From NCBI GenBank assembly GCA_017609225.1, contig JAFCEK010000004.1, positions 1 through 41,322 of the forward strand: a stretch of 41,322 nt of DNA. Direction: 5' to 3'. The notes below the pieces were generated by a model. It had not been told where the DNA came from and searched no databases. It saw only the letters and a program-made list of their open reading frames with translations. Below are positions 3,007 through 40,929 of the stretch, piece after piece; the first letter of the stretch is position 1; every line of letters begins with the position of its first letter. The translations under genes and the position numbers were made by a program. The DNA is from Candidatus Aenigmatarchaeota archaeon (GTDB lineage Archaea > Aenigmatarchaeota > Aenigmatarchaeia > QMZP01).

Positions 3007-3657
3007 ATGAAAAAGCTTGGGGAAAGGGAAACATGGTCTTTGCTGAAGAGATGGAAAATACCTGTTGCTGAATACTTTCTTGCAAAAAACCCTGAGCAGG
3101 CAGCGGGGTTTGCAGAGAGGGTTGGCTATCCTGTTGTGCTGAAGATTTCCTCAAGGGAGATTATCCACAAGACAGAGGCAGGCGGGGTTGAATCCTGCCT
3201 GAAAAATGAAAAAGATGTAAAGCATGCGTTTGAACGAATAATGAGAAATGCCGGAAAGGCATATCCAAAGGCAAAAATTGATGGTGTGCTTGTGCAGAAA
3301 ATGATGGAGGGGCATGAGATAATTCTGGGAAGCAAGACAGACCCCCAGTTCGGGCCTGTGCTGATGTTCGGAATGGGCGGGATTTTTGTGGAGGTGCTGA
3401 AGGATGTTACATTCAGGCTGATACCTGTTACAAGAAAGGATGTAAGGGAAATGATTCATGAGATAAAGGGATATAAAATCCTCAAGGGAACAAGGGGGCA
3501 GAGGCCTGTGAATTTCAGGATGCTGGAAAACATCCTGCTAAGGGTTTCTGACATGGTCTGGAAAACAGAAAAGCCAGAAATAAAGGAGCTTGACATCAAT
3601 CCCCTTTTTGTTAATTCCAGGGAAGCTGTGGCTGTGGATGTAAGGATTCTGGTCTGA
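3007..3657 (+). CDS. acdB: ADP-forming acetyl-CoA synthetase beta-subunit-like ATP-grasp protein
   Basis: Resembles the ACD beta/ATP-grasp domain (GYPVVLKISS..IHKTEAGGV, GPVLMFGMGGIFVE, ELDINPL). The start is taken at ATG 3007 (MKKLGE) rather than track position 2974. No alpha subunit is nearby. Confidence 0.7.
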   Translation: MKKLGERETWSLLKRWKIPVAEYFLAKNPEQAAGFAERVGYPVVLKISSREIIHKTEAGGVESCLKNEKDVKHAFERIMRNAGKAYPKAKIDGVLVQKMMEGHEIILGSKTDPQFGPVLMFGMGGIFVEVLKDVTFRLIPVTRKDVREMIHEIKGYKILKGTRGQRPVNFRMLENILLRVSDMVWKTEKPEIKELDINPLFVNSREAVAVDVRILV

Positions 3658-3689
3658 AAGAATAAAAAGCTTTTTATCAATAACTGAAT

Positions 3690-4364
3690 ATGAATGATAA
3701 ACCTTACTGGAAATTTAATATTTTCAAAGTATCTGATAATGAAGTGGGACCCCATATTCATTTTGGAGAGCCGGAAATTTACAAGCCTGATGAAATACAG
3801 CGCCTGGTGGGCACAGAGGTGTGCTATGTTATTGTGGATGATGATGATCCGGATAGCGGGTGTATAAGAAACTACAGGCAGGGCATGCTTGTTGGGTTTA
3901 ACAGTGAGTTTTCCTTTCTTACAATAAGGCCTGTTGTTTACAGGGGGATTGACTTTTTGGACATTGCTGATGGTATTGGTTTTGAAAGGCAAGTGACACA
4001 GGATGAGGAAATTTATCCATTCCTGCCTCAGGCAGGGGAATTCCCAGTATGCATTTTCCTTGCACCCTGTCCCCAGGAAATGATAGAGCATGACAGGAGA
4101 GAAAAGATTGGAATATTTAAGAAATGGGAAAGAGAAGGCCGCATAAAAAGGGGACCGTACGGCAGGATAGACTTTGGAACCAAGAATGATTTGTTATTGC
4201 ATGATATATGCACTGATCCCAGGATACAAGAAGAAAGTGTTGTTCTGCTTGCAAGGAATGCAACAACCCCTGCAAGATTTGGAGAGAGCAGGGTTGTTCC
4301 CCCTCACAGGTGGATGGGATACCCGGGAATATACATTGCTGCTCCGCCAGAAGATGATGAATAG
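3690..4364 (+). CDS. hypothetical protein (224 aa, acidic C-terminus)
   Basis: Long ORF in a coding-dense region. I recognise no family. Confidence 0.45.
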   Translation: MNDKPYWKFNIFKVSDNEVGPHIHFGEPEIYKPDEIQRLVGTEVCYVIVDDDDPDSGCIRNYRQGMLVGFNSEFSFLTIRPVVYRGIDFLDIADGIGFERQVTQDEEIYPFLPQAGEFPVCIFLAPCPQEMIEHDRREKIGIFKKWEREGRIKRGPYGRIDFGTKNDLLLHDICTDPRIQEESVVLLARNATTPARFGESRVVPPHRWMGYPGIYIAAPPEDDE

Positions 4365-4424
4365 AGAAATTACATTTTTAAATACATTATTCAATTTAAT
4401 TATACAGAATAGAAAAGTGGGAAT

Positions 4425-4550
4425 ATGGCCAGAAAGAAGGCAAAACAGAAAAAGAATGTAAGAACCGGGTTTCTTAGAAGAATAAAGAAAAAGATTCCGG
4501 GAGGTCCTTCCATAATTCACTACACAAAGAAAAGGGGCAGGAAGAGGTGA
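4425..4550 (+). CDS. rpl34e: very short ribosomal protein L34e-like ORF (41 aa)
   Basis: Manual ORF MARKKAKQKKNVRTGFLRRIKKKIPGGPSIIHYTKKRGRKR. It resembles the L34e N-terminal motif (R.v.vKTPGGr.v.HY.KK). It lies immediately upstream of rpl14e, which fits the known archaeal L34e...L14e neighbourhood. Confidence 0.55.
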   Translation: MARKKAKQKKNVRTGFLRRIKKKIPGGPSIIHYTKKRGRKR

Positions 4551-9276: not shown

Positions 9277-10413
9277 TTACATTATCCATTCGGTTCCTTC
9301 AGAGCAGGATTTTATTTTTTTCATTACCATTTCAATATCATTCAGGGTAATGTCCCTGCCTCCAAGCCCTGCTATGAATCCTGATATTTTTGGCCTTTTC
9401 TCCAGGTCATAGAGCGCAGCCTTTACCTCATCATACAAAGCCCCGTTCGCACCGAATGAAATGTCCTTTTCCAGAACACCCAGGGATTTCAGATTCCTGC
9501 ATTTGTCTGCCAGCTCCTGTGCAGGAAAGGGTCTCAGGCTCTTAATCCTGATAAGGCCTGTATTCTCCTTTTCCAGGAGCTCCCTGACTGTGCCTGCAAC
9601 AGAACCAATGGTTATTACTGCATGCTCCTTCCCTTCCAGATTTGATGTTTCTATTATTCCATTGCCATAGCCCCTGCCTGAAATGCCTGCAAACTCCCTG
9701 TTCACTTTTTTTATAGCATCCCTTGCCTCTTCCATTGCATCCTGCTGCTGCTTTTTGAACTTAATATAATATTCAGGTGAGCCCACAGGGCCTATGGTTA
9801 CAGGCTTTGACGGGTTCAGGGTTACCCTGGGCCTGAAGTCAGGAAGGAATTTTTTAACCTCTGCAGAATCCAGAAAATTTACAGGCTCATATGTATGGGA
9901 AATAACAAAGCCGTCAAGGCAGACCATTACAGGCAGCATTATTTCTTCGGCAATCTTAAATGCCTGTATATGGGTGTCATATGCCTCCTGGGCATTTTCC
10001 ACATAAAGCTGAATCCATCCTGAATCCCTCTGGGCAAAGCTGTCCTGCTGGTCGTTCCATATATTCAGGGGAGAGTTAAGTGCCCTGTTTGCCACTCCCA
10101 TTACTATCGGCAGCCTCATGCCTGAGGCTGAGAAAAGCATCTCATGCATAAGGGCGATGCCCTGCGATGCTGTTGCAGTATATGTTCTGACTCCTGTTGC
10201 AGATGCGCCTATGCATGCTGCCATTGCAGACTGCTCTGACTCAACCCTCACATATTCGGCATCAATCTCCCCGTTGGCAGCCATCTCTGCCAGCGCTTCG
10301 CTTATAAGCGTCTGCGGGGTGATGGGATAGGCAGCAATAACCCCCGGCCTGCACTGCTTCACTGCCTCTGCAACTGCCTGCGCACCTGAAAACACCCTTT
10401 TCCCTTCCTTCAT
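9277..10413 (-). CDS. porA: pyruvate:ferredoxin oxidoreductase alpha subunit
   Basis: Strong similarity to PorA/2-oxoacid:ferredoxin oxidoreductase alpha (GAQAVAEA..AYPITPQT...). The start is at ATG 10413, which overlaps the cutA stop (ATGA) and is preceded by GAGGTGA. Confidence 0.9.
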   Translation of the reverse strand: MKEGKRVFSGAQAVAEAVKQCRPGVIAAYPITPQTLISEALAEMAANGEIDAEYVRVESEQSAMAACIGASATGVRTYTATASQGIALMHEMLFSASGMRLPIVMGVANRALNSPLNIWNDQQDSFAQRDSGWIQLYVENAQEAYDTHIQAFKIAEEIMLPVMVCLDGFVISHTYEPVNFLDSAEVKKFLPDFRPRVTLNPSKPVTIGPVGSPEYYIKFKKQQQDAMEEARDAIKKVNREFAGISGRGYGNGIIETSNLEGKEHAVITIGSVAGTVRELLEKENTGLIRIKSLRPFPAQELADKCRNLKSLGVLEKDISFGANGALYDEVKAALYDLEKRPKISGFIAGLGGRDITLNDIEMVMKKIKSCSEGTEWIM

Positions 10414-10842
10414 TTTGTCACCTCGGTTATCCAGTTCAGGAAATCCCTGCTGCCCTTTATTTTCCAGCTTACAATGCATGGGATTTCATAACTGTGCATT
10501 TCCTTTGTCCTTTTTATCAGTATGTTTTCCAGCTCCTGTTTTGTTTTGAGTATTATTCCTGCCTCCCTGCATTTCTCAATCTTTCCCTTCCAGGGAAACA
10601 ATGATTCTATTTCAGGTATGATGTTTGCACATGCTGCCAGCTTTTCCTCAAGCAGCGCACTGGCTATATTCTCTGCTTCTTTTTTTCCTTTTGCTGTTAT
10701 GTAAATAATGTTGCCTCCGTATATCCGCCGACTTAAAGTCGGCGGTTTTCTTGGCGAGGCAACAGCTGTTGAACCAAGCTATACATCCACTGTTTGAAAA
10801 CAATGGTTTTCTCTGGTTCAGCATAATGACATGCCCGCTCAT
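10410..10842 (-). CDS. cutA: divalent-cation tolerance protein CutA, interrupted after codon 6-7 by a 113-nt element
   Basis: The ATG at 10842 overlaps the porD stop and opens MSGHVI. Downstream of the insert, a frame with no ATG/GTG/TTG start before the TTG at 10601 encodes IIYITAKGKKEAENIASALLEEKLAACANIIPEIES.FPWKGKIEK...HSYEIPCIVSWKI..DFLNWI. Removing 118 nt restores a 104-aa CutA. Confidence 0.7.
10710..10822 (-). mobile_element. 113-nt structured insertion element, copy A (in cutA), flanked by ATAAT direct repeats at 10705-10709 and 10823-10827
   Basis: About 90% identical to 18989-19099. It contains two long hairpins: gttgcctc...gaggcaac enclosing ccgccgac-ttaaa-gtcggcgg, and tgaacca...tggttca. 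Confidence 0.8.
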
Positions 10843-11135
10843 TTTTTATCCCCCTTTCTCAGCACTATTGCCTTTACAGGGCATTCCTTTATGCATACAA
10901 GGCAGCCCTTGCAGTAATCATAATCTATTACCGCCCTTCTCTTTCCTTCTTTCTCAACAATCTTTATGCCCCCTTCAGGGCAAACCCAGACGCACATACC
11001 GCAGCCTGCACATTTTTCAGTAATCTCCGGTGTTGAGCTTCTCCATGAACCTGTTTTGTTCTTCCTTGCAGAGCCTGTTTCTGTTATAATGCCTGCTGTG
11101 CTTGCTTCTCTTTCCTTATTCTCCTTCCGTGGCAT
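10839..11135 (-). CDS. porD: pyruvate:ferredoxin oxidoreductase delta subunit (2x[4Fe-4S])
   Basis: Two ferredoxin cysteine clusters, CAGCGMCVWVCP and CKGCLVCIKECP. ATG 11135 is preceded by GGAGG. It overlaps the porG 3' end. Confidence 0.85.
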   Translation of the reverse strand: MPRKENKEREASTAGIITETGSARKNKTGSWRSSTPEITEKCAGCGMCVWVCPEGGIKIVEKEGKRRAVIDYDYCKGCLVCIKECPVKAIVLRKGDKK

Positions 11136-11652
11136 TGTATGCCTCCTCAACAAGTTTTTTGTTCATCTCTCCAATCTTTCCCGGAAATTTTTCCTCAACA
11201 ACGCTCAGAACAGACTGCAGGGAAACAATTCTTGTGATTTTCGCAAACACCCCGAGCATTGCTGTGTTCACAATGTTTTTGCCAATCATATCAAGGGCAA
11301 GTTTTGTTGCATCAAAACAGCAGATCCTCTGGTTGGGATTTCCTGTGCTTATCTGCTCTCCTGAATTGACGATTATGGTTGAGTCCTCTTTAAGGCCTTC
11401 CGAAACCTCGGGCAGGCCCAGCAGTCCGGAGTCAAGCACAATCACATAATCCGGATTGTATATCTGGCTTCTCAGGGTTATGGGATTTCCTGATATCCTG
11501 CAAAATGCCCTGACAGGCGCACCTCTCCTTTCAGGACCAAATGAAGGGAATGCCTGGGAATACTTGCCGTCATATCCTGCTGCCTTTGCCAGCAGCTCAA
11601 CAAGGGTGACTGCTCCCATTCCCCCTCTTCCATGAACCCTTATCTCAATCAT
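11116..11652 (-). CDS. porG: pyruvate:ferredoxin oxidoreductase gamma subunit
   Basis: MIEIRVHGRGGMGAVT...FPSFGPERRGAPV is typical PorG. The start is taken at ATG 11652. Confidence 0.9.
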   Translation of the reverse strand: MIEIRVHGRGGMGAVTLVELLAKAAGYDGKYSQAFPSFGPERRGAPVRAFCRISGNPITLRSQIYNPDYVIVLDSGLLGLPEVSEGLKEDSTIIVNSGEQISTGNPNQRICCFDATKLALDMIGKNIVNTAMLGVFAKITRIVSLQSVLSVVEEKFPGKIGEMNKKLVEEAYNATEGE

Positions 11653-11676
11653 AGATACCAATTCATTAAAGAAAGA

Positions 11677-13554: not shown

Positions 13555-13919
13555 GGTGTGCTGTGCATAGCCCCCTTTTTGTCATCTCCTGGGATTTTAA
13601 TCCCAATGGAGGTGATAGCATTTGTCTCTGCACCTTTGCCCGGAACTGAATCCGGGTGTAGCTTGCACCCCGCAACACCAAGCATTTTCATCTGCCGTCT
13701 TTTTCTCAGCTCGCTGGTTTTACTCTGTTGCCAGAGGGTTCCCAGCTCAATGCTCCGAAGCCGGAGTTTTTTTCTGTTCTTGATGTAAGCTTCTCAGCTT
13801 CCGCCTTCCGGCGGTGCGTTGCCCATAAAGCAATGGACAGGTGAGGGGAGCTTCCTCTCCAGCCAGGAACCTGCCCGCAAGGAGCCGGACCGGAGGAGAA
13901 ACTATCTGCACAGCTCACC
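13555..13919 (-). ncRNA. rnpB: structured ncRNA of about 365 nt, probably RNase P RNA (alternative: SRP RNA)
   Basis: The 5' GGUGAGCUGUGC pairs with the 3' GCACAGCACACC. There is a CR-I-like GAGGAAGCUCC, a GGAA-capped hairpin CGCC-GGAA-GGCG and GCAACAGAGUAAAACC. AGAUGAAAA and a 3'-proximal GCAGAGACAAAUGCUAUCACC resemble the conserved RNase P motifs AGAUGAAU and ACAGAA..GGCUUAUC. Confidence 0.5.
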
Positions 13920-14046: not shown

Positions 14047-14214
14047 ATTGGTCGCCTGTCTTTTTTTAGCTTTCGTAAAGAGAGGCTTTAACAAGGACAT
14101 GTCAGGGATTAGTAACCGTGGGTTGAATATCTCGCCGAAGCTTGATACTTACGCCCCGGTCCTATCAGCCCGTCGTCTACGGGACCTTCCTCTTCGCACC
14201 GCTAATGGCAGCAG

Positions 14215-14242
14215 AACTGCCTGTTAAATCAGCATTAGCAGT
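14215..14242 (-). repeat. mini-insertion family B copy (degenerate)
   Basis: aactgcctgttaaatcagcattagcagt is similar to the copies at 14556 and 16808. Confidence 0.5.
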
Positions 14243-14555
14243 ATCTGCAGTTGCCTAGCAGTTTGAAGAATGATTGCCTAGTTTTAGGGACGGCTTCAAG
14301 CTTAGTTAGGCCCGGAAGAAATATATATACCTATTCGTTCTGTATTCTTACCTTCTTCTGGTATGCCTTCAGCTTATGGACAGCAGACAACCCGTTAAAC
14401 CAGAGTTATGGCTGTCATGCTATTATCCGTTATGGCGTAGCTACCCGGCGATGCCTATGACAGCAAGACAGCTTATATATAACCAGGGTTGCTGTCAGGC
14501 TGTTTTCACAACCGGTACACCAGAGGCCACGATTCCTCGTTCCTTTTATACCGAG

Positions 14556-14585
14556 GACTGCCTTGTTAAACCAATATTAGCAGTC
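14556..14585 (-). repeat. mini-insertion family B copy
   Basis: gactgccttgttaaaccaatattagcagtc, with terminal stem GACTGC/GCAGTC. Confidence 0.6.
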
Positions 14586-14856
14586 ATACTCGTTCGTACT
14601 GAAGGAACCTTCCCCTCAGGCATTGTAGGCAGACTTAGGTCAGTATTCAATCGCATTTGACCTAAGTCAAGCTATCTACACCCCCAGCAGATAAAGACCA
14701 TACTGGCTTGTGCCGCGGCTTGGACATTTTTAGAGCTAATTCTAGTCGAATAGCTCTTAAAGACTGCAACATTTGGTGTTGTGTCCAAACCACGTTCGCA
14801 CCGTATTTAACCCAGTTAACGTGGCTCTTTGATGAGTGAACACCTCCACCCTTTCG

Positions 14857-15615
14857 TCAGTTTAAGCGACGAATAAAATTTAAAACATCAATTTGATTCT
14901 TGAATGATTTCCAAATATCCGGTTTCACTTGATATGTTTTTAGTAAAACATCCAAAACCTTGTTTTTTTCATAACCTTTCCAATAAAGACTCTTATCAGA
15001 AACTTTCAAATTGTTTACAAATCTTATTTCCTTGGCAAATTTGTATAAATCATTTTTTGTGTCTATTGCTATTGATGAATCCCATTCTTTTGTATTTATA
15101 TCAAGTTTTTGCTTGAGTAAATTTCTGTAAAATTTTCTCAAACCAGGATGAGAGCATTTTAGTATTACCCTTCTTGTTAATTCCCATTTGTTGAATCTTT
15201 TATGCCATTTTACGCCCAATACAACACCTCCATCAGCTGAAAACATCAATTTAAAGACTTCTTTCAGTTCATTTCTTGTTAATTCTTTAAAGATGTCAAG
15301 CTTTATTTTGGGGTATGTAATTGGATATGTTTGAAGTGATTTTGTTTTCAGTGTATTGCAGAGGTTTACTAAAATTTCTCCGGTTTCTTTAGAGGAATAT
15401 TGTGTAATCTTAACTCCTTTATTATCTATTCTTTCATAGAAATTCTTTAAACCGAATAGTCTTTTCATGAGATTTCTGAAGATTTTATGTAATTCCTCGG
15501 ATTTCCCTGCATATATTATTCTGTAAGTTCTACTTCCAAACCTGACGCTTCCGTCTGTCAATAAAAGTCCTATAAGATTTGCTAAATCCTGTTTATTGAA
15601 ATTTTTTAATTTCAT
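14857..15615 (-). CDS. LAGLIDADG homing endonuclease (double-motif)
   Basis: Motifs LIGLLLTDGSV and FKLMFSADGGV. The ORF lies inside the 23S gene. Confidence 0.9.
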   Translation of the reverse strand: MKLKNFNKQDLANLIGLLLTDGSVRFGSRTYRIIYAGKSEELHKIFRNLMKRLFGLKNFYERIDNKGVKITQYSSKETGEILVNLCNTLKTKSLQTYPITYPKIKLDIFKELTRNELKEVFKLMFSADGGVVLGVKWHKRFNKWELTRRVILKCSHPGLRKFYRNLLKQKLDINTKEWDSSIAIDTKNDLYKFAKEIRFVNNLKVSDKSLYWKGYEKNKVLDVLLKTYQVKPDIWKSFKNQIDVLNFIRRLN

Positions 15616-15728
15616 GTTTTATTTTTAGGGAAGCGGGCTTATCTGATTTTTAGGCGCAAGCCGACCTGCATTAGCAGGTAAAATCAGAATATGCCCGCTG
15701 ATTTTTCCTTACTTGTCGCTTAAACTTT
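14857..15728 (-). other. 23S rRNA intron 1 (about 870 nt) carrying a LAGLIDADG ORF, in domain V
   Basis: A 12-bp terminal helix (agtttaagcgac at 14859-14870 with gtcgcttaaact at 15715-15726) brings the ends together. Flanking exon sequence resumes as ..GGCUCUUCCUGGACGUGCAGCAGCGUCCAAAG and GACGAAAGGGUGGAGGUGUUCACUC. Confidence 0.6.
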
Positions 15729-15786
15729 GGACGCTGCTGCACGTCCAGGAAGAGCCGAACCGACGGCGGAGAAGCATTGTACTGAA

Positions 15787-15816
15787 GACGGCTTCTTTCA
15801 ATCTGCACAAGCCGTC
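15787..15816 (-). repeat. mini-insertion family A copy
   Basis: gacggcttctttcaatctgcacaagccgtc, with terminal stem GACGGC/GCCGTC. Confidence 0.6.
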
Positions 15817-15973
15817 ATACATATGTACGAGGTCGATTTATCCTGCCTCTCTACTAATTCATCCGAACATATAGTTCGCCATTAGCCAATACCTACTTCT
15901 ACCGACGAGAAGTGTGGCGTATGGACTCTCGCCCGCCACGACTCCATTATCCCCAGGATAGCTTTTTCAGACC

Positions 15974-16003
15974 AACGGCTTTTTTCAATCTATCCAAGCC
16001 GTC
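15974..16003 (-). repeat. mini-insertion family A copy
   Basis: aacggcttttttcaatctatccaagccgtc. The loop is homologous to the copy at 15787. Confidence 0.6.
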
Positions 16004-16807
16004 ATGTGTTTTCTGACAGAGCAGGCCCCCATTATCAGCATAACCGCTTTTTAAACCAGTGTAAACGGCCAAGCTATTAATGAGGCACTGCGGATCGCTA
16101 GGCCACGCTTTCGCGTCAGGATTTCTTACTTTCGGAAATCCTATCAGGCTGGCTTTTGCCCTTACACTCTCTTCGAGATTTCTGACCTCGATGAGCCAAC
16201 CTTAGGGCGCTCCTGATATTAAGCGGCTGCTAAAGCTACAAACAGAGGCTTTAGAAGACGTATCTTATTAGGAGCGTACCGCCCCAGTCAAACTACCCAT
16301 CTGCCGCTGTTTCCGGCCGAGGCCGGATGAGCGATAAAGAAACGATAGGTTGGTGTTACACTTACGAGAATGGACAGCTTTTTTCAGTCAATGGAAGCTG
16401 CCATACTTTTCGCATTCCCCAGACCTGACGACCTGGGTTCGGCGCTCCCAACTACTCTATACAACCATTTCTTTATCACAACAACAGACTGTAGTAAAGT
16501 TCCATGGGGTCTTCGAGTGCCTGACTGCTTATTTCATTCATTACAAACAATCTGGCTTTCTCGTCCCGCTGAGGGTCTCCTGAGTATGCACAGGACAGTT
16601 AATTTCACTGGGTATCAGCCCGAGACAGTGGGGATCTCGTTAAGCCATTGATGCAGGCCGACAATTTCGACCAGAAAGACGACTTTCATATGCTAGAACA
16701 AGTCGTCAAACTGATAATCGGCAAGGGATTGCGCAACGGCTTTCTTCATCCTTTTTGTCAGATGACCGTCATTACGCTACCTTAAGACGGTCAGAGTCTG
16801 CGGCACA

Positions 16808-16835
16808 GACTGCCTTTAAACCAATGTTAGCAGTC
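16808..16835 (-). repeat. mini-insertion family B copy
   Basis: gactgcctttaaaccaatgttagcagtc. Confidence 0.6.
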
Positions 16836-18007
16836 ATGTGATACCGCCGGCGTTTATCAGGGCTTCATCCGGTTGAATCCGGACTTAACACACTGACACT
16901 GGCCAGGCCTCAAGAGCCATACAAGGCATTTCTGCTTAGCGGCTCCCTAAGTTTTTATTAAACAGTCGGACCCCCCTTGTTACTGAGACCTACCCTTCCC
17001 AACTTAGTCAGGAGAGTAGGCATCCCTTCTACCAAAGATACAGGACCAATTTGCCGAATTCCTTGGGCTGATTTCTCCCATTCACCTTCCCCCTAAAGGC
17101 CAATACAGCCTAACGGCTGGTTCTGGCTGTCTGACTTTCTCAGGGAGGGCACCATTCGCCGAAACCTTTCCCTTTTACATATTTCTTTCCAGAGATTTTT
17201 GAGAAAGGTTTAGTGACGGTTCTCGGTACGGATGAAAGAAATCCTTACCAGTTCCCTTTGTGCAGAACAACAGCCTGCGCTATTGAATCGGCTGTCATAA
17301 CCTTTTCACGGGTTCCAGGAATCAACCAAACCTCCTAAGGGAGGCCCTCACAACTTCACCTGTTTTGAGGCCCACGGCATTTATTCAGTAAACCAATGCC
17401 GGAAGCTTTCTCGCCATTATGGCACTCCACAGGCTTGATTGCTAGGATACAGCGAACTGTACAAGGTCTATCCCGAAACGTCAGGAACTGGTCCTGCGTT
17501 GCCGCACGTATTCTTTCAGGGCAGGAATATTAACCTGCTTCCCTTTCGGCAAACTCCATTCCTAAACCAACTGCTAGTTGCATTAACAGTGGGTTTGTTA
17601 GGGTTTGCCTTAGGACCGCCTTAGGCTGGCAATAGGAATTTATTTACTCTGGTAACATAAGCTTCCTAGAGCCATTAACCCTCAGCTGAATCGACCAGAA
17701 GCGACATATAAAAATAGTCGCCATGCTGTTAATCGTTGCTGAGGAACCCTGGCCCTGTACCTTCAAAGACGGCTTTGTTCAGCCAGCGTTAGCCGTCAAT
17801 TGATTTAGGTGGCTGAGATTTTCACCCAGCTTTCGCTGCTACTATCAACAAGATTCTTGTTTTCATGAGGTCTACCCGAACTCACATTCAGGCTTCTGCC
17901 CCCATGAAACACCTCCCTACAATATTCCGGACACAGTCCGGAATTCAGGGTCTCGGTAGCGCATTTAGTCCCATCCATTCTCAAGGCTCCCAACCTCGGC
18001 GGGTGAG

Positions 18008-18634
18008 CTATTTTGCGGCCAAGATGCCGATTTTTCTTTTTTTGGAGGGATTGAAAATTGGTATATTTTTTATGAAATTTTTATTGTCTTTTTTTGATAC
18101 CCTAAGAACAAATCTTGGATAATTCCCATTTTTATTTTTATATATTCCAACATTTCCTGAGCTTATATTTAATTTCCTAAGAAGCCTTTTTATATCATTT
18201 AAAGGTGGACATTCTAAACCATTCCAGGACAGATGAAATCTTATCTGATGTGTTCTTATATCAAATCCACCCTCAGCATCCCAAAAACCGCCTATGTACC
18301 ATTTAATAATTTCTTTATTTCCCGTATCCATTAAAATCTTCGGGGTTTTCCAGGTAATTTGTGATTTCAATGGATGATCAAATTCTTTCTGTATTTGTAT
18401 TGCTATTTTTTTGGAGTAAATTCTTAGATATGGCGTTCCTTTTCTAGGTTTACAAAATATTTGATTTCCGCTGAACGTTTTTTTCAATAGTTTTGATAAA
18501 AAATTCAGCCATTTTGTGTCTTTACTGTAGAAAGTTATATAATGGTGAATTTTTCCTTGTTTGTCACTATATCTAAGAACTGAACCATCTCTAAGTGCTC
18601 CAAGCAAATAGGCCAAATTTTTGGTGAGCTCCAT
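18008..18634 (-). CDS. LAGLIDADG homing endonuclease (double-motif)
   Basis: Motifs LAYLLGALRDGSV and IGGFWDAEGGF. The stop TAG is formed by the first exon nucleotides (UAGCUCAC). Confidence 0.9.
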   Translation of the reverse strand: MELTKNLAYLLGALRDGSVLRYSDKQGKIHHYITFYSKDTKWLNFLSKLLKKTFSGNQIFCKPRKGTPYLRIYSKKIAIQIQKEFDHPLKSQITWKTPKILMDTGNKEIIKWYIGGFWDAEGGFDIRTHQIRFHLSWNGLECPPLNDIKRLLRKLNISSGNVGIYKNKNGNYPRFVLRVSKKDNKNFIKNIPIFNPSKKRKIGILAAK

Positions 18635-18679
18635 AGTACTATTTTATTTGATTACTTAAATGTTTAACGGCATCCTGAC
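18011..18679 (-). other. 23S rRNA intron 2 (about 670 nt) carrying a LAGLIDADG ORF, in domain II
   Basis: It splits ..GCAGCCAUCAUAUAAUGAGUGCGUAA | UAGCUCACCCGCCGAGG (compare E. coli AGCGUAAUAGCUCACUGG). The ends carry an inverted repeat, ggatgccg/cggcatc. Confidence 0.6.
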
Positions 18680-18988
18680 TTACGCACTCATTATATGATG
18701 GCTGCCTCTAAGCCAACGTTCCCGCTGTCTGAGGTTGAAAACGCTTTTCCTCACTTAATACGCAATCCTAAAACGACTGCTAAAACTGTTGCAAGTCTGC
18801 TTTGCTAACAAAGCAGTCCTTTCACTGAATTAGCAGACGCTTTTTTAGGGACCTTAACCCTGATCTGGGTTTTCACCCTTTCGGAAAACGAGCTTACCCC
18901 GTTTCCGCACTCCCAGCTTCTGTGATGGTAAGGTATTCAGAGTTTGACAAGGCAACTGGGGAATGAGAGCTTGACGGCTTAAAATAAT

Positions 18989-19099
18989 GTTGCCTCCGTG
19001 TATCCGCCTACTAAAGCCGGCGGTTTTCTTGGCGAGGCAACAGCTGTTGAACCAGAACCATACATCCACTGTTTGAAAACAATGGTTTTCTGGTTCAAC
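18989..19099 (-). mobile_element. 111-nt structured insertion element, copy B (in 23S), flanked by ATAAT direct repeats at 18984-18988 and 19100-19104
   Basis: About 90% identical to 10710-10822, in the same orientation relative to the host transcript. It is nested in the loop of a GACGGCTT...AAGCCGTC mini-insertion (18973-19118). Confidence 0.8.
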
Positions 19100-20507
19100 A
19101 TAATTTATGCAAGCCGTCGGAGCCTTTTCTCCCCTTGGTTACCTAATCAGTAGCTCTACCCCCTTACCTGTCTCAGCTGAGGCTGAACTTAGGTTCATTT
19201 CGGGAGGAACCAGCTATCACCCCACTCGATTAGCCTCAAAACCAGCTGCTCCTGCTGTCTGGTGCAAGCAGCATGGTATTTTTACCCCTAGTCCCAGGTC
19301 ACGCAAGCGATTTGCCCACCGGCTGCCAATGCTTGGCTTTAGCAGCCGGTTTTGAATCTCAGCAATGCTTCGGGCCTCCATCCCGGTTTCCCGGGACTTC
19401 ACCCTGCCCAGGACTAGATCGTGGGGTTTCGGGTCTCATCCCTGTGACTCGGGCGCTTTCACACCCAACCGCCTTGCCGAAGCTGCGCGGTCTTTGCTTT
19501 CGCTACGACTGGTTTCCTTAGTCTCGCCACAGAAATGAACTCCTTGTCGCGTGTTTCAAAACGGACGATATAACCCGACAACCGGCTCTCGTACCAGGCC
19601 CTTGCGGGCTTTCCTTGAACCGGATTTCTGCAGGCCATATCTACCTGTAGCTGCATGGTTTCAGGTTCTTTTAATGTCGCAAAGCGATATTGCTGACACA
19701 GCTCGTAAACTATCGCTTTCCGATTTCATCTCCTGTTAAGGATGCTTTTCAGCTTTCCCTCACGGTACTAGTGCGCTATCGGACTCAAATTATATTTAGG
19801 ATTGGGAGTTATTGTCTCCCGTATTCCTGCTGGATATCCGACCAGCAGTACTCTGGCACTTAGTAAGGTTGCCTGATTACAGTCACAACAAATTCTTTAT
19901 GACTATAACTATTTGGCCTTACTAAGTGATACATGGTATCATCCTTCTTCCGTTCTCCTACGGGGCTGTCACCCTCTATGGCACTGCTTTCCAGCAGACC
20001 TCGGATTGGGAAGTTAGGAAGAGCCCAGTTCCAAACCCCACATCCGCACAGGCTTTCGCCAGCGCGTTCGGTTTGTCCTGTTCCCTTTTCGGTCGCCCCT
20101 ACTAAGGGAATCGCAATACATAACCATTAAATGGCTATGTACTGTTTTGCTTTCTTTTCCTGCGGTTACTAAGATGTTTCAGTTCACCGCGTGCTCGCTT
20201 GCTGATGCAAGCGTCCAAAAGGACGGGAAGTCCTATCCGAACTGACTGCTAATATTACGAAGTTTTATCTGTATTAGAAGTCAGTTATTCGGTAATCCCG
20301 GGTTCAATGCATGCCTGCGGCTACCCCGGGCTTACTGCAGCTTGCCACAACCTTAAAGAGCAAGACAGCCAACTGGAGTTAATTGCATAGTAACCCAAGC
20401 TGTCATGCCTTTCTTCGATATTTGAGCCAAGCCATCCACCATACAGCCTTGCTGTCCTTATAACTAACCCCTGCCTTACTCAGTTTGTAAAGAAAGGGTT
20501 TTTTGTC

Positions 20508-21809: not shown

Positions 21810-22520
21810 TCATGCTTTTGTACCAACCATTGTAGGCCGCGTCTGGACCCAAATTGGCAAATTTTGGGCTTTCCTGATTTTATCAGGGTGATTAAATCCG
21901 ACATTCTCCAAGTATTTTTTGACTTTTTTAAATCCAATAATTTGAAAACCAAACATGTTTTTATATTTCCAGATGCTTGGATTTACCCCAAATCTTTGCA
22001 ATAGTTTGACAATATCATCTCTTATAATTTTATTTGAAACATGGAATCCAATTCTTGGATATGTATAAGTTTTATTGGTTCGTTTAACCTTTTTGATAGT
22101 TATCCAACCTTCTGAATCCATCCATCCTCTTAAATATTCTTTTATTGTATCATTTGATGAACTGAAGATTGGTTTCGGCGTCTTCATAAAAAAGGTCTTA
22201 TCTTTTGTTGGAATTTGTAATTTTTTGTAAATTTCAACGGCTTGTTTTGAGCAAAGTCTTGTCCTGTAAGTTATTTTTCCTTTCTTTGTTTTCAAACTAG
22301 AAATCACTATCCTGCCTTGAAATAATTTCTCTAATCTTGGTTTAATTATTTTTTGATGGAACTCAAGGCATTTGTCAGTTATTGAAATCCTATATTCTCT
22401 TGATTTTGGATTTTCTGTAATTGCTCCATCACCACCAATAAGACCTATTGTATATGCAAAGATTGGAGTAATTGCGGTTTCGGTTTCGTTTTTATCAAAT
22501 TTTAATTTCATTTGAATCAC
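21810..22520 (-). CDS. LAGLIDADG homing endonuclease (double-motif)
   Basis: Motifs AYTIGLIGGDGAI and LRGWMDSEGWI. The last roughly 14 codons read through into 16S exon sequence. Confidence 0.9.
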   Translation of the reverse strand: MIQMKLKFDKNETETAITPIFAYTIGLIGGDGAITENPKSREYRISITDKCLEFHQKIIKPRLEKLFQGRIVISSLKTKKGKITYRTRLCSKQAVEIYKKLQIPTKDKTFFMKTPKPIFSSSNDTIKEYLRGWMDSEGWITIKKVKRTNKTYTYPRIGFHVSNKIIRDDIVKLLQRFGVNPSIWKYKNMFGFQIIGFKKVKKYLENVGFNHPDKIRKAQNLPIWVQTRPTMVGTKA

Positions 22521-24890: not shown

Positions 24891-25113
24891 GGCCGCGACT
24901 GGGATTTCCATTTCACCCGTTGCCTTTGAATATGCCTTTCTTGGGTGAGACCTGGACCTTCTTTCGCGAAAGAAGGGGTCGGTTTTCGAACCCAGCTCAA
25001 GGGATGTCTGCCAGGCCTTTATTTGGAAGCCTTAGCTCCTTTTTGCCTTCAGGCTTTTTCAAGAAAAAGCCTGACCACAGTCCCTTATGTTAACCAGCTA
25101 CACCATCGCGGCC
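24891..25113 (-). tRNA. tRNA-His(GUG) with encoded G-1 and two introns
   Basis: Exons assemble to G(-1) GCCGCGA UG GUGU AGCUGGUUA ACAU A AGGGA CUGUGGA UCCCU UGAG CUGGG UUCGAAU CCCAG UCGCGGC C73. There is a canonical 37/38 intron at 25006-25074 (69 nt) and a 59/60 intron at 24905-24984 (80 nt). Confidence 0.85.
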
Positions 25114-25174: not shown

Positions 25175-25461
25175 GCGGGGGTACCCAAGCGCCTTTTTCC
25201 ATGCGAATATGCAAGCGCCAGGAAAAGAATTGGGAATGGCCAAAGCCCTGCGGCTACAGGGGCAGGACTTAAGCTGCTGGCTTAAGTGCTTTGAGAAACC
25301 TCTGGGTTTCAGTGAAGAAACAATGCCCTAAGAAATCCTGTGGCTTAGAGGCTCCCTCATGTAAATGAGGCTGCCAGGCAATGCCTTCGCGAGTTCGAAA
25401 GGCTGACGGCTGGCACTGGCTGAACAAGGCCGTAGCAGTTCCGGTTGTCTCGCCCCCCGCA
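25175..25461 (+). tRNA. tRNA-Leu(UAA), class II, apparently with four introns
   Basis: Acceptor GCGGGGG/CCCCCGC plus A73. D-stem CCC/GGG (25184-86/25259-61). Anticodon arm CAGGA CUUAAG..A UCCUG, variable arm GGC-AAU-GCC UUC, T-arm GCGAG UUCGAAU CUCGC. The extra sequence lies at four sites: the D-loop (about 25191-25248), 37/38 (25274-25334), the variable region (about 25342-25376) and 59/60 (25400-25447). Confidence 0.75.
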
Positions 25462-25496
25462 TAAGATTTATTTGGCCTAAAGCAAAGGATGAGAGC

Positions 25497-26222
25497 ATGA
25501 AAATCGGAATAAAGATATACAGGCCCGAAAGGGATTATCTGAACAGAATCCTGAAGCATGTGGATTTTATAGAGGTTATGGCTGTTGAGGGGGAAAGCTA
25601 CAGGCTTCTTGAGGGAATTGATATCCCTTTTGTAATACATATGGAGCATTATAATTTTGGTGTGAATCCTGCAAACCCTTCCCTGGAAAAGAGGAACAGG
25701 AAGGCACTGGATTTTGCCTTGTCCCTGGCGGACAGGCTCAACTCGGAAACTGTGATAATGCATCCCGGATTTCTGGAAAACAAAAACTGCTCTGAATCCC
25801 ATTCATTAGATTTCATAAGAAACATCCTGGACAGCAGGATAATTGTTGAAAACATGCCCTGCAGGTCGCTGGGCATTGGCTTAAGGATTCTTGCCAGCAC
25901 ACCAGAGGATATGAAAAGAATGATGAAAGAAACAGGCAAGGGCTTCTGCTTTGACTTTGGCCATGCAGGCGCTGCTGCATGCTTCCTGAAGAAAGACCAT
26001 GTAAAATTTGCAGGGGAATTCATGAAGCTGAAGCCAAGGCATTTCCATGTTTCTGATGGAAAAACAAATATTCCAAAGGATATGCACCTGCATCTTGGCG
26101 ATGGCAACCTGAACCTTGCAGCATTCAGAAGAATGCTGCCAAAAAATGCATGGGTCACGGTGGAAACAGGAAAGGAAAGCATTGAGAAGCAGATAAGGGA
26201 TATTGAATTTATGAGGGGTTAA
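25497..26222 (+). CDS. xylose isomerase-like / AP endonuclease 2 family TIM-barrel protein
   Basis: VIHMEH, VIMHPGF, IVENMP, CFDFGHA and HFHVSDG motifs. Its 3' end overlaps the convergent sigma gene by 14 nt. Confidence 0.65.
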
Positions 26223-27264
26223 CGGCTTCTGATGGCTGGAAATCTATAAACCCTTTCAGCTTTCCTGCTCTTTCAGGATGCCTCAGCCTTTCCAGCGCCT
26301 TTATCTCTATCTGCCTTATCCTCTCTCTTGAAAGGCCAAAAATTTCTCCTATTTCTTTTAATGTGTATCTTTCCCCTGTATAACAGCCATCATCACCAAA
26401 GGTGAGGCCGTATCTGAGCCTTATTATCATTTCCTCCATTGGGCTGAGTGTAGGCAAAATGCCTTCTATGGTCTCTCGGGTCATGTTTCCATGCGCTTCT
26501 TCTGGTGGACTTGGAGATTTTTTATTTTCAACAAACTCGCCGAATGGGGACTCATCATCTCCTCCATGCATATCCAAGTTTATAGGATGTTTCATTATTC
26601 TTCTTAATCCCGCTACTTCACTTACAGGTATTCCCATCTCTCTTGCGATGTTCTCATCAGTTGCTCTGCCCTCCACAGCCAGTTCCCTTTCAGTTCTTCT
26701 TAACATGAAAAATTTTTCTATTATATGAGAAGGTATCCTTACTGTTCTTGCATTGTCTGATAATGCCTTGGTAATTGCATTCCATATCCAGTGTGCAGCA
26801 TATGTGCTGAATTTGTATCCTGTTTCCGGCTTGTATCTCTCCACTGCCAGGATAAGGCCTGTATTTCCCTCAGCTATAAGGTCAAGAAAATCCAGTCCTT
26901 TGCCTCTGTATTTTTTTGCTATTGAAACCACAAGCCTTTGGTTTGATTCTATCATTACTTTGTAAAAAATTTCATATTCATCAAACAATTCCCTGATGTT
27001 ATCATATGCCTCAAGGAAATGTTCGGGAAAATCCCCCAAATCCGGAAGCAGTTTTTTGTATAGTTCCATGGCTTCCTGCATATCTTTTAATTGCCTGCAT
27101 CCTTTTAGCGAATCAGCATAAGAGCCAAATTCCGGGTCATTATAAATCATGCGGAGAAGCATGGATGTTGGATTGAAATCTTCCATTAAACCCCTTAGTT
27201 CTTTCTGGCTTTTCTTTATTTCTTTCCTTTTCTTCTTTGCTCTTTCTGTATCTCCACTCTCCAA
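26209..27264 (-). CDS. bacterial-type RNA polymerase sigma-70 family protein, regions 2-4 (the frame is open upstream to 27390)
   Basis: Close to RpoD across its length. Region 2: [61 protein letters not shown]. Region 3 start: [13 protein letters not shown]. Region 4.2: [31 protein letters not shown]. The track start is TTG. Confidence 0.85.
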
Positions 27265-40026: not shown

Positions 40027-40929
40027 CTAAGCAAGCAGGCATTCATGTTTTTCCCAGTTTTCCAGTCTCTGGTATTCTGAATCCACATGCTTCTGGATTT
40101 TCTCTGTTTCCTTTTCTGTAAGATGTTTGAACCTTCCCTGGAGTTTCAGGTATTCCTGAACCGGCTTCCTTTCCTGGATTCTTTTTGTGATTCTGAAAAC
40201 CCCGTTTTCAATTTCATACAAAACCCACATGCCTGTTTCCACAGCAAGCCTTGCTATATTTATTGTATCAGCAGAATCAAACTTCCAGCCCGGGGGGCAT
40301 GGGCAGTGTATATGAACAAAGCTTGGCTGCATCTCAAATGCCTTTTTGACCTTGTTTATGAGATCTGTGGGGTATGCAACAGATGCAGAGGCAACATATG
40401 GTATTTTGTGCGCGGCAACAATTTCCCCTATTGCCTTTTTCTGCTCGGTTTTTCCTATTGATTTGCTTCCAGCAGGGCTTGTTGTGGTCCAGGCACCATA
40501 TGGCGTAGCGCCTGACCTCTGGACACCTGTGTTTGCATAGCATTCATTGTCAACACATATCTGGGTTACCTTGTGCCCCCTTTCCAGCATGCCTGAAAGT
40601 GCCTGCAGCCCTATATCAAAGGTTCCGCCATCGCCTGCTATGGCCATAACCTTCCAGTCCTTTCCCAGATGCTTTATGGCTGCCTCTATGCCGGAAGCAA
40701 CAGAGGATGCTGTTTCAAAGGCGTTATGAATCCAGGGAACATTCCAGGCAGTGTTTGGGTACATTGTGGTGGTGACTTCAAGGCATGATGTTGCGCAGGA
40801 AACTATAACATTCCTTGGCGTTCCTTTTGATAACAGGTTAAGCGCTATGGCTACACCGCATCCCGGGCACATGCTGTGGCCGGGAGAAATCAGCCTGAAA
40901 TCCCCTTCCTGGCTGGTTTTTTCTGTCAT
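40027..40929 (-). CDS. porB: pyruvate:ferredoxin oxidoreductase beta subunit (TPP-binding)
   Basis: CPGCG, the GDGG TPP motif (IAGDGGTFDIG), and NECYANTGVQRSGATP. Confidence 0.9.
   Translation of the reverse strand: MTEKTSQEGDFRLISPGHSMCPGCGVAIALNLLSKGTPRNVIVSCATSCLEVTTTMYPNTAWNVPWIHNAFETASSVASGIEAAIKHLGKDWKVMAIAGDGGTFDIGLQALSGMLERGHKVTQICVDNECYANTGVQRSGATPYGAWTTTSPAGSKSIGKTEQKKAIGEIVAAHKIPYVASASVAYPTDLINKVKKAFEMQPSFVHIHCPCPPGWKFDSADTINIARLAVETGMWVLYEIENGVFRITKRIQERKPVQEYLKLQGRFKHLTEKETEKIQKHVDSEYQRLENWEKHECLLA

Follow-up and report, generated by a model that had tools for sequence, protein, structure and literature searches.

The contig JAFCEK010000004.1 of a Candidatus Aenigmatarchaeota archaeon (assembly GCA_017609225.1) was analysed over its whole length of 41,322 nucleotides (nt), referred to here as the window. 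It carries a por operon in which a cutA gene, situated between porD and porA, is split by a structured insert of 118 nt. The operon and the parts of the insert are organized as follows, all on the minus strand:

11116–11661, minus: porG
10839–11153, minus: porD, with two 4Fe-4S clusters, upstream of cutA
10410–10842, minus: split cutA, between porD and porA
10823–10842, minus: cutA 5' segment, ATG AGC GGG CAT GTC ATT AT, its ATG overlapping the porD stop
10823–10826, minus: TTAT target motif directly 5' of the element, within the cutA codons ATT AT (present at 23/23 family left junctions)
10705–10822, minus: inserted element, 118 nt, 5'-GCTGAACC to GGCAAC-ATTAT-3', with boundaries set by family comparison
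10768–10822, minus: hairpin module 1, outer stem GYTGAACC/GGTTCAAC
10760–10771, minus: central 12-nt palindrome CAACAGCTGTTG, linking both modules and invariant in the family
10710–10763, minus: hairpin module 2, homologous to module 1, GTTGCCTC..AAGAAAACC-hairpin-GGATATAC..GGAGGCAAC
10705–10709, minus: element-borne 3' terminal ATTAT, the same in every copy, with any base next
10410–10704, minus: cutA 3' segment, T TAC ATA ... AAA TGA, its stop overlapping the porA ATG
9277–10413, minus: porA, downstream of cutA

The genes are coupled by overlapping stop and start codons, both verified in the sequence: an ATGA at 10839–10842 joins porD to a cutA reading frame opening MSGHVI, and another at 10410–10413 joins cutA to porA. 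At the 3' end of cutA, the motif GAGGTGA precedes the porA ATG by 4 nt. The initial annotation, made from the sequence alone, placed the insert at 10710–10822 between ATTAT repeats at 10823–10827 and 10705–10709, and our re-check of the sequence agrees. Deletion of 118 nt in silico restores cutA exactly, giving MSGHVIIYITAKG..., an uninterrupted protein of 104 amino acids as had been claimed. The restored protein matches Pfam CutA1 (PF03091) over positions 2–98 of 99 (E=9.1e-32, 109.2 bits) and retains all 13 invariant columns; its N-terminal VIIYIT corresponds to the conserved first strand and fits the homologue consensus xxxxIIYIT. No second lesion, whether stop or frameshift, is present in the gene. 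With the insert in place (118 nt, or 3n+1), the frame shifts after codon 7 and runs to an out-of-frame stop at 10648–10650. The exact sequence predicted for an empty site is GTCATTATTTAC.

The best named relatives of PorA are from Aenigmatarchaeota (DPANN archaea), with 69–73% identity. Related loci share a conserved gene order, consisting of the large subunit (LSU) rRNA, ribonuclease P (RNase P) RNA, Sec61-beta, two apurinic/apyrimidinic (AP)-endonuclease-like genes, porG, porD, cutA where present, porA and a MacB permease. In two of them (L006 and L001) porD and porA enclose an intact cutA; in another (L004/L005) porD is coupled straight to porA, and because cutA is absent there, the gene is dispensable at this position in the clade. 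The window and its relatives have a MacB/ABC transporter gene rather than porB following porA, and the sole porB-like gene of the window (with a TPP_enzyme_C domain) is at 40027–40929 (minus), 29 kb from porGDA (9277–11661, minus).

We regard cutA as most likely a young pseudogene. The insertion would shift the frame after codon 7 and knock the gene out, with porA retaining its own Shine-Dalgarno sequence, and cutA function has probably been lost. The knock-out does not appear to be brand-new. The restored CutA scores 109.2 bits against 124–134 bits for its nine nearest homologues (15–25 bits lower), with the window's PorA, PorG and AP-endonuclease scoring on par with their orthologues. The cutA copy of the element also has private changes, namely a T to C at the otherwise near-invariant element position 2 and indels that weaken stem 1. 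These sequence differences make the earlier description of the insertion as very recent doubtful. The gene should carry an annotation as disrupted.

A family of structured elements inserted 3' of TTAT

The element is composed of two homologous modules, each of the general form GTTG-stem-AGAAAACC-hairpin-GGATRYAY-stem-CAAC, with both halves joined by CAACAGCTGTTG. In module 1, the conserved block AGAAAACC precedes the inner hairpin and GGATGTAT follows it. Both inner hairpins have an invariant GAAAAC directly on their 5' side, at a distance of about 14 nt from the left TTAT, and the right TTAT is about 16 nt past the second inner hairpin. The two long hairpins recognized by eye in the initial annotation are borne out by folding, which gives two compound hairpins with z=−4.6 to −6.0 relative to shuffled controls (−4.6 as RNA with flanks, −5.6 as DNA). 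Each of the two hairpins is self-contained, so that the element ends do not pair. Inverted similarity of the termini is limited to GTTG/CAAC (4 bp), although redrawing the boundary by one base yields TGTTG/CAACA, a perfect 5-bp inverted repeat flanked by TTA...TTA. No Rfam family matches the element.

Related copies were sought with a pattern built on the conserved blocks with variable stems, and then with nhmmer. In the Joint Genome Institute (JGI) metagenomes Ga0180431/33/34 the block pattern identifies 25 loci with 28 matches, and nhmmer identifies 33 related copies in the same samples. The block pattern has no match in GTDB genomes, and exact 24-mer, 20-mer and terminus-anchored patterns have none in GTDB genomes, JGI metagenomes or IMG/VR. 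These copies belong to related archaea, in which an aminoacyl-tRNA synthetase is 77% identical to that of the window, and genes near the copies code for proteasome, exosome and RadA proteins.

The junctions are strikingly uniform. All 23 distinct left junctions read N-TTAT followed by GTTGAACC, with TTAT adjoining G(T/C)TGAACC in every case; the base preceding TTAT is not fixed (A 10, C 7, T 4, G 2). Every copy ends in GGCAAC-ATTAT followed by any base, and the reverse polarity (ATAA flanks) is absent among the 23 distinct junctions. The ATTAT pair bracketing the cutA insert, formerly interpreted as a 5-bp target duplication, thus consists of a fixed TTAT target and the element's own 3' ATTAT. 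The upstream flanks of the copies are unrelated to each other. The termini and outer stems are invariant, and the inner hairpins covary, with compensatory changes in 9 of 36 pairs.

Most copies are intergenic, 10–80 nt from genes, and in either orientation relative to their neighbours. Among five copies between co-directional genes, four are antisense (L031, L017, L024 and L027) and one is sense (L030). Many genomic copies in intergenic DNA in both orientations had been named beforehand as an observation that speaks against an intron, and this is what is found. Head-to-tail tandems with one common ATTAT occur in L014, L026 and L024, and variants of 190 and 337 nt contain extra hairpin modules between unchanged termini. 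The family is thus mobile and multi-copy, targets TTAT with a single polarity, and has a conserved structure. The tandem and long-variant sites are at L024 4355–4815, L030 4632–4972, L014 4254–4499 and L026 10280–10521; module variants are shuffled among copies, suggesting recombination between elements. We also note that in L009 an element copy (4391–4515, minus) lies 25 nt from a gene coding for a 402-amino-acid tRNA-splicing endonuclease (3158–4363, plus), the endonuclease being upstream. The predicted protein has N-terminal and catalytic domains, is far longer than an alpha subunit, and is a candidate enzyme for the relaxed mini-introns of this clade.

A second copy nested in a 23S rRNA mini-intron

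The element occurs a second time in the window, within the LSU rRNA gene:

18984–19099, minus: second element copy, 116 nt, in the LSU rRNA gene, with TTAT before it at 19100–19103
18964–19126, minus: host bulge-helix-bulge (BHB) mini-intron in the LSU rRNA gene, 163 nt (a mini-intron of about 47 nt plus the 116-nt passenger)

The initial annotation had noted a copy of about 90% identity in the 23S rRNA gene, in the same orientation relative to its transcript. This is correct: the two copies are 92% identical over 126 nt (blastn E=1.5e-46), and the second is also sense, on the minus strand. The interpretation of that copy as itself an rRNA intron does not hold, since a BHB mini-intron carries it as a passenger in its loop. 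The Rfam alignment places it within a 164-nt insertion at the tip of a hairpin. The host intron has a central helix GGAG/CUCU (4/4 pairs) with bulges AAA and CAU, and its splicing gives GGGGA-GAAU-UCCCC, the tetraloop hairpin expected by the Rfam model, with a predicted spliced 23S junction of GGGGAGAA joined to UUCCCC. The approximately 47 nt that are left after subtraction of the element form a mini-intron hairpin, GACGGCUU-loop-AAGCCGUC, that covaries among copies.

The element would have landed on a TTAT in the AU-rich loop of this mini-intron, and would leave the rRNA along with the spliced host intron. It is presumably tolerated in the rRNA gene because it is removed in this way, and the arrangement illustrates how a mobile element can persist in an essential rRNA gene when the loop of a spliced mini-intron conceals it. 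The proposed link between rRNA-gene and protein-gene insertions is therefore real, but has a simple cause in that the rRNA copy is inside a spliced mini-intron.

Transposition and rival explanations

We interpret the 118-nt insert as a non-autonomous mobile DNA element of the IS200/IS605 type, similar to the palindrome-associated transposable elements (PATEs), that knocks out cutA, and we assign this reading a probability of roughly 0.6. The family is previously undescribed and is found in Aenigmatarchaeota-like DPANN archaea, whose tiny genomes have little-described mobile elements; it is strongly structured and targets TTAT. The combination of an asymmetric constant TTAT, one polarity, hairpin ends, no real inverted repeats and a target-like end motif points to this class of enzyme. 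The element, a chain of two homologous hairpin modules, would insert directly 3' of TTAT in a single polarity by single-strand, hairpin-guided 'peel-and-paste' transposition, with a transposase acting in trans and encoded elsewhere, and probably without a true target duplication. The GAAAA(C) blocks are positioned where the DNA guides of IS200/IS605 elements lie and may pair with TTAT, a pairing that we assume by analogy with IS608.

The ends of IS200/IS605 elements have left and right hairpins with guide sequences, in the same layout as the GAAAAC blocks described here (PMC10055086). PATEs are short and non-coding, with a hairpin at each end and no inverted terminal repeats; they insert with fixed polarity 3' of a short conserved motif, have a related motif at their 3' end, are expected to excise without a scar, and are present in many copies per genome (PMC10055086). 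The elements described here share with the PATEs of Haloquadratum and Geobacillus, which are non-autonomous IS200/IS605 derivatives, the small size, lack of coding capacity, end hairpins without inverted terminal repeats, fixed polarity directly 3' of a short conserved motif, a 3' end resembling that motif, and many copies. They differ in several respects. A partner tnpA or tnpB was not found, and TTAT serves as both target and end motif. Homologous hairpin modules, from 2 to about 6, make up the entire body as a chain; the outer hairpin directly adjoins the left boundary, and the inner stems vary by compensatory change.

Several observations weigh against an IS200/IS605-type origin or a simple loss of cutA. 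There is no TnpA, TnpB or other transposase gene in the 41-kb window, and no transposase among the 25 commonest Pfam families of 150 open reading frames (ORFs) in 182 kb of related loci. The outer hairpin begins at 1 nt from the left boundary, a shorter distance than in IS608. Copies differ in the sequence of their inner hairpins, and TnpA enzymes usually read a conserved hairpin. As the target and the 3' end are both TTAT, insertion with no duplication and insertion with a 3–4-bp TTA/TTAT duplication predict the same sequence. No empty site for any family copy was found among the related loci examined, both copies in the window are sense to their transcripts, and cutA is intact apart from the insert.

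A serious rival, although one that we consider doubtful, is that the element is an ordinary MITE (miniature inverted-repeat transposable element), mobilized by a DDE-type transposase, with TGTTG...CAACA ends and a TTA/TTAT duplication (Tourist/PIF-like or IS5-like); cutA would still be knocked out. The one-base redrawing of the boundaries described above is what this explanation needs, the size, copy number and intergenic habit are MITE-like, and neither the window nor the 25 commonest Pfam families of related loci include an HUH transposase. The fixed polarity speaks against it: the asymmetric target has one polarity in 23/23 junctions, where symmetric cut-and-paste should yield both, and a T always follows the right TTA. 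A 5-bp repeat is also very short for DDE terminal repeats, for which about 10 bp or more would be expected, and the tandems with one common ATTAT match the expected outcome of insertion 3' of an element's own TTAT. Classical MITEs such as Correia/NEMIS, RUP, Sulfolobus SM and those of Thiomargarita are alike in size (about 120 nt), strong folding, multiple copies, mainly intergenic sites and occasional gene disruption, but have clear terminal inverted repeats and duplications of random orientation, rather than a fixed polarity to TTAT and an inverted repeat of just 4–5 bp. Thiomargarita MITEs disrupt rRNA and protein genes, and one is within a group I intron (PMC4853749). The suggestion that a MITE disrupted cutA was right as to the kind of event, a mobile insertion, but an ordinary 5-bp duplication and a clear terminal inverted repeat are both missing.

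The alternative favoured by the exact restoration of cutA is that the insert is a transposon-born intron in the mRNA, cut out by the archaeal splicing endonuclease and ligase or by another activity; CutA would then still be produced. BHB mini-introns are extraordinarily abundant in the lineage, the porA gene of a relative has a 30-nt insert with a canonical BHB, and DPANN splicing endonucleases often accept relaxed motifs (PMC5829648). Owing to the ATTAT repeat, six registers are compatible with the 118-nt deletion, and no BHB is present at cutA in any of them: the central helix has 1, 3, 1, 0, 1 and 2 pairs of 4, and there are no flanking helices. Register 1 does provide a 3-of-4 helix with CAU/CAU bulges, but chance alone would yield a helix of this quality in about 0.6 of six-register trials. 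In contrast, the same test finds 4/4 pairs in the positive controls, comprising 13 of 15 short LSU inserts and the porA insert of L001. The self-contained hairpins leave the element ends unpaired, the 23S copy needs a host intron for its removal, and CutA scores 15–25 bits below its homologues. Family copies are intergenic, often antisense and with unrelated upstream flanks, which argues that there is no selection for splicing. We therefore hold an mRNA intron, as offered in the initial annotation, to be very improbable. Archaeal BHB introns, including the cbf5 mRNA intron, are similar in that a protein gene is interrupted, exact removal restores the frame, and the lineage uses BHB splicing heavily; here, however, the BHB is lacking at the cutA junctions, the 23S copy relies on a separate host intron, and copies extend beyond transcripts and the sense strand. 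Two further searches for BHB motifs were set aside. A 43-nt BHB-like motif in hairpin 1 of the cutA copy, the removal of which would leave an in-frame 25-codon insert, corresponds to a perfect stem in the 23S copy and the family, and a scan of the whole window with a BHB pattern gave chance motifs in the hundreds, and tests at alignment-fixed junctions took its place.

Rescue of cutA at the RNA level, or by reversible scarless excision, has at best a slim chance. The element would be either a transposon-born intron, removed by a relaxed endonuclease acting on the 3-of-4 AUGU/GCAA helix with CAU/CAU bulges, or a reversible switch, with a trans-acting TnpA excising it scarlessly in part of the population, and we give the two jointly little credence. 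If either were true, it would represent an archaeal counterpart of eukaryotic 'introner' elements or a transposon on/off switch in a central metabolic operon; RNA-level removal would produce a cutA mRNA junction of GTCATTAT joined to TTACAT, and the peptide spanning the junction, if CutA is made, would be MSGHVIIYITAK.

An assembly artefact, with a repeat wrongly threaded into cutA, is very unlikely. Family copies are often at contig or scaffold breaks in metagenome assemblies, but unique cutA sequence is present on both sides in the right order, and the insert has the exact family TTAT and ATTAT junctions together with private substitutions absent from the 23S copy. Programmed translational bypass, with take-off at ATT 10825–10827 and landing 118 nt downstream at an identical codon, in the manner of T4 gene 60 or the 'byp' elements of yeast mitochondria, is scarcely credible. 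Identical in-frame ATT codons do flank the insert and a stable hairpin comes right after the take-off codon, but no stop codon follows it, the signals required by known bypass systems are absent, and the repeat is accounted for by TTAT targeting in 23/23 mostly non-coding junctions. Known bypass gaps are at most 55 nt and need specific signals, and a gap of 118 nt is more than twice any that is known. The insert resembles the Rickettsia palindromic elements and bypass inserts as a small structured insert in coding sequence with short flanking repeats, but the Rickettsia elements are in frame and translated, whereas this insert of 118 nt (3n+1) runs to an out-of-frame stop. K-turns, integron attC sites, repetitive extragenic palindromes and bacterial interspersed mosaic elements (REP/BIME), and IS91/Helitron elements were also considered and discarded on account of a misfit in motif order or target. 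The TTAT-targeting IS200/IS605-type element remains the preferred interpretation, and the main value of the analysis is as a correction: what appeared to be a second kind of archaeal mRNA intron is, on this evidence, a mobile DNA insertion.

Mini-introns and other features of the window

The surroundings are more remarkable than the element itself, with mini-intron-packed rRNA genes, a probable multi-intron tRNA gene and a candidate BHB intron in porA, and the lineage is a good place to study the spread of archaeal introns, including into protein genes. The LSU rRNA gene (14090–20463, minus) spans about 6.4 kb relative to an Rfam model of 2987 nt, and the Rfam call ends at 15630. Its last third was aligned to the partial LSU of the relative L006 (83% identity); a haloarchaeal rRNA operon was too distant to serve as the reference for mapping inserts. 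Compared with L006 there are 15 extra short inserts in this region, of which 13 measure 43–51 nt and the other two 83 and 88 nt. They include:

16731–16773, 16667–16715, 16515–16560, 16364–16409, 16220–16263, 16032–16075, 15967–16012, minus: LSU inserts, part 1
15777–15822, 14623–14673, 14547–14594, 14458–14506, 14376–14422, 14205–14249, minus: LSU inserts, part 2

The inserts are within the universally conserved core (e.g. GGUAGCGUAA / UCCCUUGCCGAUUA / AUUGUCGG). Thirteen of the 15 have a perfect 4-bp central helix and A-rich 3-nt bulges in the register that gives the relative's exact sequence, a match with a chance of about 0.02 per register, and many carry the covarying hairpin GACGGCUU...AAGCCGUC. 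The pattern has the appearance of a burst of BHB mini-introns of about 46 nt, and nothing comparable was found in the literature searched. The small subunit (SSU) rRNA gene is similar-looking, at 3370 nt relative to a 1478-nt model.

The porA insert mentioned above is in L001 (JGI 3300038440, contig Ga0394677_29217), the source of the closest CutA relative, at positions 832–861. It is 30 nt long and contains an in-frame TAA, and its removal gives ...AAYPITPQ joined to THIVEKIAE... The BHB is canonical, with a central helix CCAC/GUGG, bulges AAU and AUA and a 4-bp inner helix, and from its sequence the insert is a candidate mRNA mini-intron outside cbf5.

A probable tRNA gene at 25176–25462 (plus) is broken by several mini-introns. 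Its 5' GCGGGGG pairs with the 3' CCCCCGC-A, and its T-arm GCGAG-UUCGAA...UCUCGC is split by a hairpin of the mini-intron family (25404–25433); ARAGORN and Rfam find nothing at 25176–25462. This hairpin was also considered as a mini-intron of the AP-endonuclease gene at 25497–26222, but that ORF looks complete and the hairpin is in the upstream probable tRNA gene. Large introns are present in the rRNA genes as well, with LAGLIDADG homing-endonuclease ORFs at 14856–15730, 18008–18634 and 21810–22520, all minus (two of the three in the LSU gene, the third in the SSU gene). The LSU intron of about 875 nt has a strong BHB-like motif (15713–14867), in which the outer helix has 7 bp and the inner helix 6 bp. 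Upstream of the SSU gene, at 25006–25075 (minus), a very strong BHB-like motif delimits a 69-nt 'intron', with a 7-bp outer helix, a central CUGU/GCAG and a 9-bp inner helix.

Elsewhere in the window, a bacterial-type sigma-70 factor with regions 2, 3 and 4 all present is encoded at 26209–27264 (minus), on a contig that is otherwise archaeal (fibrillarin, Sec61-beta, RadB and an ATP-dependent ligase). At 13616–13865 (minus), an archaeal RNase P RNA scores 52 bits relative to an Rfam gathering threshold of 84 and overlaps the 5' end of the long Sec61-beta ORF as called; at the matching place in the relative L006, the RNase P RNA reaches a full score.

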